Shown here: positions 1,966-6,435 of the stretch, one piece after another | How positions within the stretch are numbered: the stretch's first letter is position 1 | How the letters are laid out: the number at the start of each line of letters is the position of its first letter | Source: Bacteroidota bacterium | GTDB taxonomy: Bacteria; Bacteroidota; Bacteroidia; Bacteroidales; VadinHA17 | Length of the DNA: 64,000 nucleotides | Assembly: GCA_043800695.1 (NCBI GenBank) | Contig: JAZDMU010000002.1 | Span: 27,944 to 91,943 of the forward strand | Reading direction: 5' to 3' | Notes under the pieces: model-generated | The model's database searches: none | The model's input: the letters and a program-made list of their open reading frames with translations, nothing else | Told to the model about the DNA's origin: nothing | Translations under genes and position numbers: made by a program

Positions 1966-2490
1966 ATGCGACATTCAAAAGTTATAAATCATTTAGGGAG
2001 AACGAGCTCGCACAGAAAGGCAATGATGGCGAATATGGCCACTTCCCTTATTCTTCATAAGAGGATCAGTACCACCGTGCCCAAGGCGAAAGCATTGAAG
2101 ACATACGTTGAGCCCCTCATAACTAAATCGAAGGAAGATTCAACCCACTCCAGGAGAGTGGCATTCGGCTATCTGAAGGATAAAGCCGCAGTAGCTGAAT
2201 TATTCAGGGAGATATCCCCGAAAATAGCAGAACGCCCGGGAGGGTATACACGGATACTGAAAACCGGGAACAGGATCGGCGACAATGCCGAGATGTGCAT
2301 TCTTGAGCTTGTCGATTTCAACGAGCTCTTGAAAGGCGGTGCAGAAGCTGCAAAAACCAAGACATCAAGAAGAAGAAGGGGACCTAAGAAAAAAGGCGAA
2401 GCTGAAACTGGCGAAAAGAAGACACCCGAAGCAAAGGTAAAAGAGCCTGAGAAGAATGAACAGCCTGAAACGGCGTCTGAAGAAAAGTAA
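1966..2490 (+). CDS. rplQ: 50S ribosomal protein L17 with charged C-terminal extension
   Basis: [11 protein letters not shown] and [10 protein letters not shown] motifs; follows rpoA. Confidence 0.98.
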
Positions 2491-2574: not shown

Positions 2575-3858
<1,284 letters not shown>

Positions 3859-3886
3859 TTATCAACAATTGTTAATAACTTTTGTT

Positions 3887-3920
3887 AAAACCGGGTTTAC
3901 AACAACGACCCGGTTTTATT
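3887..3920 (+). terminator. Intrinsic terminator after eno
   Basis: aaaaccgggt...acccggttttatt inverted repeat just after the eno stop. Confidence 0.8.
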
Positions 3921-3949
3921 GCATTATTATACTTCCTGTGCTATTTTTG
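3919..3949 (+). promoter_or_regulatory. Bacteroidota primary-sigma promoter (-33 TTG, -7 TATTTTTG) in front of the candidate ncRNA
   Basis: TTG at 3919-3921, 20-nt spacer, TAnnTTTG match at 3942-3949. Confidence 0.7.
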
Positions 3950-3951
3950 AT

Positions 3952-4452
3952 CTGGCGGGTGAGCGATAAAAGGCTGCTCGAAAGATGTGGAACCGGCTTT
4001 GGTTACTTAACTGAAACACGATCCGGTTCATTCAGGCCTCCGGGCCTGCGCATCAAGAGAGCCGAAGCCCGGATGAAAGGACCTAAAGTCCCGGGTATCC
4101 GGCAGATCGAAGAAAACCGGAAACGTTCTTTCAGAGATTGAGTCACAGGGCTTCAGAAAACAAAAGGGTCTCGGCCCGGAGTGATCTGAAACCGGTGCCG
4201 ATTCCTTCGGGAGACGCGCACCGGAGCCTGAAGGACACTTCGTCCCGGAAAGTCAGGCCGCAAGGCAGGAAGAAAGGGACAGCCGGAAGGTTTTGCCGTA
4301 ACAGGTAAAACCGGAAAGCCAGGGGTTGCAAAACCAGATCGTAAGACCTGTAATGCAGCCGGCCAGAATAACAGTAACCCGACGCCGTAAACGGCCTCGG
4401 CTGTAAACGGTGAATGGGAACTAATCGCAAGAATAGTTCCCATTATTGTTTT
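3952..4452 (+). ncRNA. Candidate ~500-nt highly structured non-coding RNA, family not recognised
   Basis: Own promoter and terminator; many nested helices (gaaccgg/ccggttc, caggcc/ggcctg, cagatc/gatctg, ccggtgc/gcaccgg, ggttttgcc/ggtaaaacc, ggttgca/tgcagcc); cTTCGg, GCAA and GTAA loops; no credible ORF. Confidence 0.75.
4413..4452 (+). terminator. Intrinsic terminator closing the candidate ncRNA
   Basis: aatgggaacta-atcgcaagaa-tagttcccatt followed by attgtttt. Confidence 0.8.
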
Positions 4453-4474
4453 ATAAATATCCCGTTTTTATCTT

Positions 4475-4503
4475 ACCCACCCCATGCCCCTCCCAGGAGG
4501 GGA
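4475..4503. repeat. REP-like palindromic repeat (acccacccc...cccctcccaggagggga), copy 1
   Basis: 27/29 identical to 40420-40448; related to the 11054-11300 cluster. Confidence 0.75.
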
Positions 4504-4516
4504 TTCTATAATTAAA

Positions 4517-4563
4517 CTGTCATTGCGAGGAGTCTCGAGTTACTCGGGATGACGAAGCAATCT
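4517..4563. repeat. GTCATTGCGAGG...GACGAAGCAATC-type small palindromic element
   Basis: Recognisable widespread palindromic repeat layout with inner hairpin ctcgag-tta-ctcggg; only one copy in the window. Confidence 0.6.
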
Positions 4564-4614
4564 TTCTGCCATTATTTCAATATCAGTATCTTTGATCATC
4601 AATCATTTTTAAAA

Positions 4615-6435
4615 ATGGCCTATTCAGGACTTTCCTCCTTTATTGATGATCTCGAACGGAATAATGAACTTACCCGTATAAAAACCTTCGTTGACCCGGT
4701 ACTCGAAATAACCGAAATAACCGACCGCATATTAAAAAATAACGGAAAGGCTCTCCTGTTCGAAAATACCGGTACAAAATTCCCCCTTCTTATAAATGCC
4801 TATGGATCAGATAAAAGACTCTCCATGGCGCTGGGAAGAGATACCCTCGATGACACACCAGATGAAATAACCGAACTCTTTGGAACCCTCACTGCCACAG
4901 GAGGCAGATCACTGAAGGCGCTGAGATCGCTCCTGAAAATATCAGGGTATATGCCGAAAAGAATCAGGGGAAGAGTGAGCTGCCAGCAGGTGGTGGACAT
5001 GGATCCCGATACCGGCATTCTCCCTGTTCTGAAATGCTGGCCTCACGATGGCGGACGATTCATAACCCTGCCGATGGTCCATACAAAACACCCTGAGACC
5101 GGTAAAACCAACGTCGGCATGTACCGCATGCAGATTCTTGACCGGAAAAGCACCGCCATGCACTGGCAGCTTCACAAAACAGGAGCAAACCATTTTGAAG
5201 CATGGAAGAAGGCAGGACTAAGAATGCCGGTTTCCGTCACACTCGGAGGCGACCCTGTCTATGCATATGCCTCCACTGCGCCACTCCCGGAGAACTTCGA
5301 TGAATATATCCTTGCCGGATTTCTCAGAAAGAAGAAGGTGAAACTTGTAAAATGCATCACAAATGATCTCTATGTTCCATCCGATGCCGATATTGTTATT
5401 GAAGGCTATGTGGATCCGGCTGAAGAGCTTGTGTGGGAAGGTCCCTTTGGTGACCATACCGGTTTCTATTCCCTTGCCGGCTGGTACCCCCGTTTCCATA
5501 TAAACTGTATAACCTATTCAGGGAATGCTGTTTATCCGGCAACTGTCGTGGGTGTTCCGCCGCACGAGGATGCCTGGCTCATAAAAGCTGCAGAAAAGAT
5601 ATTTCTTGCACCGGTACGGCTGGCTGTTCAACCTGAAATTGAAGACTTTCACATGCCTGCTGCAGGCGTTGCACACAACCTCGTTCTCGTTAAGATCAGA
5701 AAAACATACCAGGGACAGGGGAAAAAGGTTATAAGCTCTCTTTTCGGCACCGGGCAGATGATGTTTACCAAGTACCTGGTTGTAGTCAGCGGCAGAGTTG
5801 ACATCAGGAACTACAGTGAGCTGATCCGGCATGTGCTTGCTAATACCGATTTCAGAGCCGACCTGGTTTTCACCAGCGGTCCCCTTGATGTGCTCGACCA
5901 TTCATCAGATACTTTTGCAATGGGGGGCAAGCTGGGAATTGACGGTACAATAAAAATGCCGGAAGAAAAGAGACCTGATATAGATTGCGGGAGAATAACC
6001 CGGGATGATCTGCCGGTTACCGTTGTGGGAGTGAATCAGGATGAATCTGCAGATTCAGCTGAAAAATCCAGGGAAGGATTCAGGAACAGGGAGACGATTG
6101 ACAGGTTCAGGATAATCCTGGCAGTTGATCATACGGTGGATATGAATGATATGCACATGGTAGCCTGGCAGGTACTGGGTAATTCAGATCCGCAGCGCGA
6201 TATTGAGATCATCTCCGGTAAAACGCTATATGTTGACGGAACGATAAAAGCATATCATGGTGGCAGGTTCCCACGGAAATGGCCCAACGTCGTTTGCTCC
6301 GACGAAAAAACCATAAAAAGGATAGATCAGATATGGGAATCCCTCGTGTGCGGCCCCTTCATTCCTTCCCCGTCGATGAAAACTTCCGGGTTGCTTCGGG
6401 GAGGCACTGATGAAATAATCACCGGAGAATCCTGA
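4615..6435 (+). CDS. UbiD-family decarboxylase (menaquinone/futalosine-pathway type)
   Basis: NVGMYRMQ and EGPFGDHTGFY motifs, GKLGIDGT; start moved to ATG 4615 because TATCTTTG promoter lies at 4587-4594. Confidence 0.9.
   Translation: MAYSGLSSFIDDLERNNELTRIKTFVDPVLEITEITDRILKNNGKALLFENTGTKFPLLINAYGSDKRLSMALGRDTLDDTPDEITELFGTLTATGGRSLKALRSLLKISGYMPKRIRGRVSCQQVVDMDPDTGILPVLKCWPHDGGRFITLPMVHTKHPETGKTNVGMYRMQILDRKSTAMHWQLHKTGANHFEAWKKAGLRMPVSVTLGGDPVYAYASTAPLPENFDEYILAGFLRKKKVKLVKCITNDLYVPSDADIVIEGYVDPAEELVWEGPFGDHTGFYSLAGWYPRFHINCITYSGNAVYPATVVGVPPHEDAWLIKAAEKIFLAPVRLAVQPEIEDFHMPAAGVAHNLVLVKIRKTYQGQGKKVISSLFGTGQMMFTKYLVVVSGRVDIRNYSELIRHVLANTDFRADLVFTSGPLDVLDHSSDTFAMGGKLGIDGTIKMPEEKRPDIDCGRITRDDLPVTVVGVNQDESADSAEKSREGFRNRETIDRFRIILAVDHTVDMNDMHMVAWQVLGNSDPQRDIEIISGKTLYVDGTIKAYHGGRFPRKWPNVVCSDEKTIKRIDQIWESLVCGPFIPSPSMKTSGLLRGGTDEIITGES

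Follow-up and report, generated by a model that had tools for sequence, protein, structure and literature searches.

A large structured RNA with a near-invariant terminal rod, encoded downstream of enolase in a Bacteroidales genome and probably of a class not yet described

The window analysed here is a 64,000-nucleotide (nt) stretch of a Bacteroidota genome (GenBank assembly GCA_043800695.1, contig JAZDMU010000002.1; order Bacteroidales, family VadinHA17), and the element of interest lies in it between the enolase gene (eno), which ends at position 3858, and a gene of the UbiD family. This interval almost certainly contains a stand-alone gene for a structured non-coding RNA, at 3953–4452 on the + strand, with its own promoter and intrinsic terminator; the gene is about 500 nt long in the window and 300–650 nt among relatives. 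The initial annotation of this DNA had proposed an independently transcribed, structured RNA of that size downstream of enolase, and the promoter, the terminator, the fold, the covariation among homologues and contigs from RNA libraries of four studies all bear this out. The gene and its control elements are as follows.

3883–3923, + strand: terminator hairpin of eno, separating eno from the RNA gene (−16.8 kcal/mol, z-score −5.07), then UUUUAUU
3919–3921, + strand: −33 element TTG of the RNA promoter, read in the sequence
3942–3949, + strand: −7 box TATTTTTG, of the Bacteroidota TAnnTTTG type, read in the sequence
3953–4452, + strand: predicted transcript of the RNA, its 5′ end placed by the promoter and its 3′ end by the terminator U-tract
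4413–4452, + strand: intrinsic terminator, with a stem at 4413–4444 (−17.4 kcal/mol, z −4.84) containing a conserved GGGAA/UUCCC, then AUUGUUUU

Both terminators had been recognised at the outset (that of eno at 3887–3920), as had the Bacteroidota promoter that follows the first of them, in which TTG and the −7 box are separated by a spacer of 20 bases, and the promoter is kept in homologues. A TAnnTTT[GA] box stands at a constant distance from the 5′ motif of the RNA in all 89 distinct homologous upstream regions, 81 of which also have a −33 TTG 16–24 nt 5′ of the box; in the 64-kb window the composite promoter motif occurs 5 times, both strands counted. A generic consensus scan reported 0 terminator-like sites and 2 sigma-70-like sites, both on the other strand; its rules (loops of 3–8 bases, sigma-70 hexamers) are unsuited to Bacteroidota promoters or to loops longer than 8. 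The next gene has a TAnnTTTG box of its own at 4587–4594, 20 bases 5′ of the ATG that we read in the sequence at 4615.

The region 3945–4460 has a minimum free energy of −204.6 kcal/mol on the + strand (z −7.08, with none of 100 shuffles as good), compared with a z of −4.53 for the − strand, and it contains frequent G-U pairs that are compatible with the + strand only. The 5′ and 3′ ends of the RNA pair with each other to form a terminal rod, in which helix P1 is followed by a near-invariant internal loop and then by helix P1b; a UNCG-type hairpin and then the terminator lie 3′ of the rod.

3955–3960, + strand: P1, 5′ strand GCGGGU, pairing with 4377–4382
3961–3971, + strand: near-invariant loop, 5′ strand GAGCGAUAAAA (family motif GAGNGAUAAAAG), invariant or nearly so in the columns of alignment A1
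3972–3975, + strand: P1b, 5′ strand GGCU, pairing with 4361–4364
4361–4364, + strand: P1b, 3′ strand GGCC, from the rod pair count
4365–4376, + strand: near-invariant loop, 3′ strand AGAAUAACAGUA (family motif AUAACNGUA), with invariant columns in alignments A2, A3 and A4
4377–4382, + strand: P1, 3′ strand ACCCGA, from the rod pair count

The six positions of P1 are paired in 65–74 of 74 distinct homologue combinations, with G-C, A-U, U-A and G-U exchanges, and the four positions of P1b in 61–74 of the 74, for example as GGCU/GGCC, GACU/GGUC or GAUU/AGUC (in this count L236, L087 and L095 are without the regular-expression motif). The internal loop, rich in purines and in A, is 11 × 12 nt and reads 5′-GAGNGAUAAAA-3′ and 5′-A-N-A-AUAACNGUA-3′. 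Its motifs are present in homologues from the family, from the order and from other orders, and they are the most conserved part of the RNA across more than 20 families; the interior between them ranges from 199 to 549 nt. The interior enclosed by the rod, from roughly 180 to 530 nt, is a domain of several helices that is conserved in the family but differs in both size and shape from one family to another. The two N positions of the loop co-vary (C.A in 54 of the 74 combinations, A-U in 9, A.A in 3, C.C in 3, G.A in 2, and three singletons), and double changes arise within otherwise uniform groups, including within the genus (L054); we therefore infer that the loop strands face or touch each other. 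The loop positions adjoining P1 are GAG in 70 of 74 combinations (AAG in the other 4) opposite GUA in 73 (AUA in 1), a pairing that we take to be the loop E submotif of bacterial 5S rRNA (sheared G.A, reverse-Hoogsteen A.U, G.G). It is a lead, from sequence, that the rod may begin next to P1 with an element like that submotif; the fit is limited to the first three positions, and the remainder of the 11 × 12 loop is A-rich, with no motif recognised in it. A sarcin-ricin register with a bulged G was dropped as it would break the covariation of the two N positions (N6/N-6), and a K-turn or C/D-box reading of the rod was dropped as the loop is near-symmetric and without tandem G.A pairs.

Covariation in the remainder of the molecule was assessed in alignments of domain A (A1), of domain B comprising P7–P10 (A2) and of the 3′ module, that is, the 3′ hairpin and terminator (A4), each compared with slid controls in which the pairing partners are shifted and with 500 shuffles per alignment. 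Alignments A1 and A2 exclude L019 (in which a run of N gives the appearance of an insertion), L023, L069 and the 626-nt group, and A4 excludes seven odd sequences and the wrongly cut L071. In A1, 85.6% of the cells are paired compared with 24–45% in slid controls, and 22 of 30 pairs have changed on both sides, with 0 of 500 shuffles equal; in A2 the corresponding values are 82.9% and 21–43%, with 13 of 23 pairs compensatory, a count equalled in 16 of 500 shuffles, whereas the other four measures (including the paired fraction and the covariation score) were equalled in none. The 3′ module is the best paired, with 91.7% of cells compared with 32–47%, 17 of 21 pairs compensatory, and 0 of 500 shuffles reaching the paired fraction or the covariation score. 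Covariation is thus strong in all three alignments, and it is pairing that homologues conserve instead of an open reading frame (ORF). RNAalifold, which is independent of the hand-built model, recovers P2–P5 in domain A with 17 of 24 predicted pairs compensatory. The helices between the two sides of the rod, and the hairpin following it, are as follows.

3976–4062, + strand: domain A, comprising P2, P3, P4 and P5 (A1 pair counts and RNAalifold)
3976–3979/4059–4062, + strand: P2 (A1 and RNAalifold)
3984–3989/4049–4054, + strand: P3 (A1 and RNAalifold)
3990–3996/4023–4029, + strand: P4, with the apical loop UUAACU at 4007–4012 (family consensus C-UUAR-NU-G; A1 and RNAalifold)
4033–4048, + strand: P5 hairpin (A1 and RNAalifold)
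4063–4067/4238–4242, + strand (span 4063–4242): P6, bearing a variable insertion domain at 4068–4237 (alignments by eye)
4242–4246/4276–4280, + strand (span 4242–4280): P7, with an inner GCAA hairpin at 4257–4266 (A2 helix 1, 4 of 5 pairs changed on both sides)
4281–4320, + strand: P8, a GGAA/GGAA internal loop, and the P9 hairpin at 4289–4312 with a conserved loop GUAACA at 4298–4303 (A2 helices 2 and 3)
4324–4360, + strand: P10, GGUUGCA (4324–4330) with UGCAGCC (4354–4360), and a distal GUAA hairpin (A2 helix 4)
4383–4412, + strand: 3′ hairpin with tetraloop CUCG (−15.6 kcal/mol, z −3.99)

Domain A has a constant length of 113–114 nt in 55 sequences. P6 shows the variants CGAAG/CUUCG, CGCAG/CUGCG and CGGAG/CUCCG by eye, G4242 could be part of either P6 or P7, and the P6 insertion is shorter or absent in the family homologues of 355–466 nt. 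In L023/L026 (G006:C2, same genus) the part matching query positions 128–300, which is most of the P6 insertion, is gone with both ends kept, so that the insertion domain is dispensable in nature. In domain B, 6 of 9 pairs of P9 have changed on both sides, P8 is weak (66% paired), and P10 is 92.7% paired with mostly one-sided changes (U-G, C-G, U-A). The tetraloop of the 3′ hairpin is UUCG or UACG in most homologues and 9 of its 10 pairs have changed on both sides (A4 helices 1 and 2), while the terminator stem (A4 helix 3) is 97.5% paired with 8 of 11 pairs changed on both sides and GGG/CCC in 43–44 of 44 sequences. The loops C-UUAR-NU-G of P4 and GUAACA of P9 are seen again in several other families, though GC-rich divergent forms lack them. 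Five divergent order-level homologues (L243, L234, L230, L238 and L244) have common interior motifs that are absent in the window's family, such as UCAGACA..., GUCAGCUUGAA and AAAUCAAGUGG, which suggests that they may possess lineage-specific conserved domains. A GUUAC/GUAAC pseudoknot linking P4b to the P9 loop was dropped from the model as it is confined to the genus.

This comparative model keeps seven of the 12 helices that the initial annotation had drawn by eye: gaaccgg/ccggttc, caggcc/ggcctg, ggac/gtcc, ccggtgc/gcaccgg, gcc-GCAA-ggc, ggttttgcc/ggtaaaacc and ggttgca/tgcagcc. The other five were judged mostly by eye on the alignments. The proposed closing helix tctggc/gccaga was right in having the ends pair to close the molecule, but they do so through P1 and P1b; cccgg/ccggg gives way to CCGGAU/AUCCGG, cagatc/gatctg to two local helices, and gccg-taaa-cggc to the longer hairpin at 4383–4412, and cctga/tcagg is without support.

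ORFs do overlap the interval, one of 102 amino acids on the + strand that extends in from eno and two of 95 and 96 amino acids on the − strand, but none is conserved in homologues, and the earlier statement that no credible ORF is present stands. The longest stop-free stretch shifts in strand, frame and length across 66 homologues (median 96 amino acids), that of the window copy (104 amino acids) compares with 90 ± 21 in shuffles, and no three-base periodicity was seen in the variability of alignment columns. A protein-coding reading is rejected on these grounds.

A scan of the whole window with Rfam 15 (4227 covariance models) gave 0 matches at the gathering threshold, and permissive scans of the window copy (3800–4620, E up to 10) and of 28 homologues, 14 of them from the family and 14 from other orders, yielded chance-level matches only, none of them recurring; the RNA is thus not ROOL, GOLLD, OLE, HEARO, raiA or Bacteroidales-1 as modelled by Rfam. 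The initial annotation had supposed a new or poorly known class; the lack of an Rfam match agrees with this, but the ROOL/GOLLD-like affinity that it entertained is not supported by the Rfam models. It had seen neither RNase P RNA nor tmRNA in the interval, and indeed the genome's own genes for RNase P RNA (RF00010, 238.9 bits) and tmRNA (RF00023, 121.2 bits) are each on another contig, as is that for the RNA of the signal recognition particle (SRP; RF00169, 53.4 bits), with no match to any of the three in the interval. A Y RNA or YrlA was rejected because the Ro60 protein (TROVE, PF05731) was not found in the window genome, the controls Deinococcus radiodurans and Bacteroides thetaiotaomicron being positive, and an Hfq-dependent small RNA because Hfq (PF17209) was not found there at E up to 0.1. 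A riboswitch or cis-regulatory leader is contradicted by the strong conserved terminator, by downstream genes that vary by family and by the TAnnTTTG box before the next gene, and a mobile element by the absence of a second copy in the window genome and of any match in phage or plasmid collections. A search of the main texts of the open literature, including passages of PMC2864571, 10.1101/2024.04.05.588293 and 10.64898/2026.10.21.760802, gave no description of the RNA; a motif without an Rfam accession may stand in the additional files of PMC2864571 or in similar motif catalogues. The name 'Bacteroidales-2', which had been offered as a possible class, was not found in print in the literature searched. 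We conclude that the RNA probably represents a class not yet described.

There is good support for the interval being transcribed and abundant. Among public sequencing runs, 20 contain part of the stretch, of which 15 are recorded as RNA, from 11 studies. Contigs at ≥90% identity number 185, 1735, 4913 and 2771, respectively, in one RNA library from each of four studies (of groundwater, wetland, freshwater and 'outdoor' metagenomes), and those at ≥99% number 35, 438, 683 and 568; contig cover extends from bins 3938–3971 to 4414–4447, with a summed word depth, relatives included, of up to 10^5–10^6. Bins at the 3′ end of eno and in the 5′ region of the ubiD-like gene have depths of 0–27, and the last bins of the terminator are far below the interior; uncovered bins are not countable, so we draw no transcript ends, silence of neighbours or 3′ processing from the depth profile. 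In run X6, two low-depth RNA contigs join the 3′ part of the RNA back to position 3958 (window 3958, 4149, 4423), one of them via a variant terminator arm; these may be chimeras of a very abundant RNA that arose in the library or during assembly, or they may represent head-to-tail forms, and they give a hint of a 5′ end near 3956–3958.

To follow the RNA in other genomes we used models R1 and R2, built from the window's family, and R3, which represents the 3′ module; E-values of these models are rough (shortened calibration), and we relied on bit scores, on whether independent modules were co-linear and on whether both rod motifs were present. The RNA is single-copy in the window genome. Full-length BLAST matches of 71–84% identity are present in 22 of the 24 other genomes of the genus, and within the family BLAST finds 66 of 121 genomes (that of the window included), often at the two ends only. 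R3 finds one match each in 117 of the 121, in 85 of 88 high-quality genomes and in all 20 genera, and BLAST thus badly under-counts. One of the four genomes missed by R3, G133 (same genus, one contig, 99% complete), has no match by BLAST either, which is possibly a natural loss of the RNA. Family homologues measured by nhmmer are of 355, ~430, 466, 498, 520–540, 582 and 626 nt, differing because the middle domain is variable.

Beyond the family, R3 detects the RNA in 32 of 151 genomes and 31 of 148 genera of an order sample, and roughly one in five of the Bacteroidales families sampled possesses it; R1 alone matches 10 of the 151 genomes and R2 35, at E ≤ 0.01. Co-linear R1 and R2 matches in the right order and strand were found at 19 of 25 re-examined order loci, and of the other six (L241, L245, L246, L248, L249 and L250) R3 later confirmed L241 and L245. 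In a sample of the class Bacteroidia, 24 of 151 genomes (including that of the window) match R3 at E ≤ 0.01, so that further orders carry the RNA; among 14 class loci examined, 9 also show the canonical 5′ motif, correctly spaced, and a tenth, L267, shows a variant of it that is visibly shortened. In a phylum sample R3 matches 4 of 151 genomes, all of the same class, and the two largest families of that sample have 0 of 31 and 0 of 22; R2 has no match outside the order in the phylum sample, whereas R3 does. Two copies in different neighbourhoods are seen in G174, G218, G257 and G267 of the order sample, in G467 and G482 of the class sample, and for L162; the two matches in G467 score equally and lie 1.7 kb apart on one contig.

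A scan of named genomes, using a pattern that is biased towards the family, found at least 80 loci; among the matches listed, 74 of 80 have an R2 match beside the pattern. The R2-supported carriers among these include Maribellus maritimus strain 5E3 and metagenome-assembled genomes (MAGs) labelled Draconibacterium, Mariniphaga, Sunxiuqinia, Mangrovibacterium, Tangfeifania, Prolixibacteraceae, Marinilabiliaceae, 'uncultured Rikenellaceae' and Bacteroidales. Of the six listed matches without R2, two are at contig ends and four are by chance (Waterburya, a Clostridia MAG, Puia and a Desulfobacterales MAG).

Within the family, eno, the RNA gene and the UbiD-family gene follow one another in this order, and at L010, L054 and L056 the ORF that precedes eno in the window is matched just upstream. 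That ORF, of 174 amino acids at window 1966–2490, presumably encodes ribosomal protein L17, which it resembles by eye; if so, the RNA gene is two genes past the end of a large ribosomal-protein cluster. In other families the neighbours differ and include PfkB, a histidine kinase, Nramp, Fe-ADH, PGM, YicC, MatE, DHODH, a beta-lactamase-family protein, SRAP and RelA/SpoT. Between the RNA terminator and the UbiD-family gene, window 4455–4600 has a C-rich stretch and a partly palindromic element (~4515–4565, ...cattgcgaggag...cgaagcaatc...) that looks like a repeat or regulatory element.

The interpretation that we favour is that this uncatalogued, structured RNA of ~500 nt would be trans-acting, would accumulate to high levels and would form the RNA core of a ribonucleoprotein. 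In this view a conserved partner, in all likelihood some protein that is not RNA polymerase, would dock on the invariant terminal rod, and the variable interior would be a scaffold or lineage-specific add-on, with the family-conserved interior adding lineage-specific contacts or stability. Function would be centred on the rod because this is the only part conserved in all lineages and its loop positions are sequence-constrained and co-vary across the strands. We give this docking-rod mechanism a probability of roughly 0.4. For the broader proposition, that a large and very abundant RNA, with its loop-E-like rod at the heart of a ribonucleoprotein or RNA machine, constitutes a new class of housekeeping-level RNA of Bacteroidia, with a cellular role new to bacteria, we consider the odds to be about even.

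Among known systems, the Y RNAs and YrlA, which associate with Ro60 (Rsr), have a rod of paired 5′ and 3′ ends with a variable interior, and the new RNA is like them in this arrangement; it is much larger, however, and lacks an Rfam match, and the window genome has no TROVE/Ro gene. OLE RNA sits beside oapA-type genes. The new RNA is like OLE RNA in being large (~600 nt for OLE), ornate, lineage-restricted and chromosomal, with conserved nucleotides interspersed in a complex fold, but unlike it in lacking an Rfam match, in belonging to Bacteroidia and not Firmicutes, in its conserved terminal rod with a variable interior, and in having no adjacent partner genes. OLE RNA is described as working as a ribonucleoprotein (PMC9723947).

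Several observations weigh against the ribonucleoprotein proposal. No gene was seen to be co-localised with the RNA across families, and no partner protein has been identified; neither Hfq nor Ro/TROVE was found in the window genome. The absence of a match in G133 implies that the RNA is dispensable in at least one lineage. The strong conservation of the interior within the family (the 113–114 nt of domain A, and the UUAR and GUAACA loops) indicates that it may carry a function of its own and not be a mere scaffold. The loop E assignment depends on motif rules applied to sequence only, and the register of the 11 × 12 loop is uncertain; moreover, the evidence from RNA libraries consists of assembled contigs, which are silent on ends, strand and level.

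Foremost among the alternatives, though unlikely, is a 6S- or Ms1-like RNA, abundant and binding or sequestering RNA polymerase, with the conserved internal loop as its 'bubble'. The likeness to 6S RNAs (including Bacteroidales-1, RF01693, and 6S-Flavo, RF01685) is in being abundant, single-copy and stand-alone with near-universal retention, as expected of a housekeeping RNA, and in a large conserved internal loop flanked by helices. Ms1 of mycobacteria, a lineage-specific and abundant RNA of ~300 nt whose role is 6S-like, sets the example of a housekeeping regulator that is larger and non-canonical; it differs from the new RNA in phylum and fold, and was compared by the absent Rfam match only. 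A whole-genome search of the window genome with RF00013, RF01685 and RF01693 gave nothing at E ≤ 0.001, and no 6S, 6S-Flavo or Bacteroidales-1 RNA is detectable even at E up to 10, where Bacteroidales-1 gives 4 weak matches elsewhere in the genome and none in the interval; the 6S-Flavo model matches neither this genome nor any of its control genomes and is hence uninformative. A 6S gene downstream of rplT in the window genome was also considered and rejected, as a convergent ORF and not an RNA is found there. No 6S being recognisable in the window genome, a 6S-like role stays in contention. However, 6S function requires long stems and a bubble that mimic a promoter duplex, and the new RNA is a branched, multi-helix junction and not one long rod of some 180 nt, with P1 (6 bp) and P1b (4 bp) too short for such mimicry; nor is it matched by the covariance models of 6S.

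The distribution of 6S-like RNAs bears on the same question. In G218 and G247, both of them carriers, there is in addition a typical 6S-like rod that has a long closing stem and a U-tract (Bacteroidales-1 at 56.8 and 40.7 bits), so that the new RNA is not the sole 6S candidate there. By nhmmer or blastn these rods have no credible sequence relative in the window genome. They are RNAs of ~190 nt, at ~1540–1725 of L252 (G218) and at ~1500–1692 on the minus strand of L253 (G247), and they fall below the gathering score of Bacteroidales-1, whose Rfam model apparently misses some of the 6S RNAs of these lineages. In the order sample Bacteroidales-1 matches 2 of the 32 R3 carriers compared with 30 of 119 others, at most a weak anticorrelation among related genomes, and 94 of 151 genomes have neither a Bacteroidales-1 match nor the new RNA (by R2 and R1 calls, not R3). 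A passage of bioRxiv 10.1101/2024.04.05.588293 gives Bacteroidales-1 as the B. thetaiotaomicron homologue of 6S RNA.

Somewhat less probable still is an RNA-only assembly, as reported for ROOL, GOLLD and OLE, in which loop-loop contacts would build a multimer whose shape is the function. The RNA is, like ROOL and GOLLD, a large and ornate bacterial RNA whose hairpin loops are conserved; the family and several others have either UUAA or UUAG as the core of the P4 loop, both being self-complementary (with wobble); and the neighbourhoods offer no apparent protein partner. ROOL and GOLLD are often phage-associated, though, whereas the new RNA is chromosomal and syntenic, absent from phage and plasmid collections, and without Rfam similarity to ROOL, GOLLD or OLE. 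Moreover, the UUAR and GUAACA loops are absent in the more divergent GC-rich homologues, which retain only the terminal rod, and conservation of U-U-A-purine is equally expected from a protein or tertiary contact.

We regard two further proposals as improbable, and equally so. The first is that the invariant loop between P1 and P1b would be the active site of a ribozyme or the binding site of a ligand-sensing RNA, as near-invariant nucleotides in a junction-like internal loop, co-varying non-Watson-Crick positions and covarying helices around them might suggest; large ribozymes have a range of length and complexity that comprises that of the new RNA. The interior that would be needed to build an active site is, however, not conserved across families, and there is no evident substrate or processing site and no conserved association with a metabolic gene. 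The second is a base-pairing regulator or sponge, in which the A-rich strands (GAUAAAAG; AAUAACAGUAA, an A-R-N repeat) would be seeds or mimics of other RNAs, masked by P1 and P1b until opening or processing to the 3′ module. These strands are sequence-invariant, as seeds are, and the 3′ module (a conserved stretch capable of being single-stranded, a hairpin and a terminator) resembles a typical bacterial small RNA, but covariation of P1 and P1b implies that the A-rich strands are held together, that of N6/N-6 indicates strand-strand contact, and Hfq was not found in the window genome. Finally, that the interval is no independent non-coding RNA at all but a long eno 3′ untranslated region, a ubiD-like leader or a small protein gene, as its constant place between eno and the UbiD-family gene throughout the family and the overlapping ORFs of 95–102 amino acids might have it, is very improbable given the terminators on both sides, the conserved promoter of its own, the other neighbours in other families, and the lack of a conserved ORF or periodicity.

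Large, abundant and broadly retained bacterial RNAs are few, comprising the rRNAs, RNase P RNA, tmRNA, SRP RNA, 6S RNA and orphans such as OLE, and each such large RNA has opened a field. To our knowledge the class Bacteroidia is without Hfq, ProQ and CsrA, and its RNA biology is poorly known. As there are cultured carriers of the RNA (Maribellus maritimus 5E3, for instance, and, to judge from MAG titles, Draconibacterium and Mariniphaga), its role is testable at the bench now, and the invariant rod is a precise target for mutagenesis and pull-downs.

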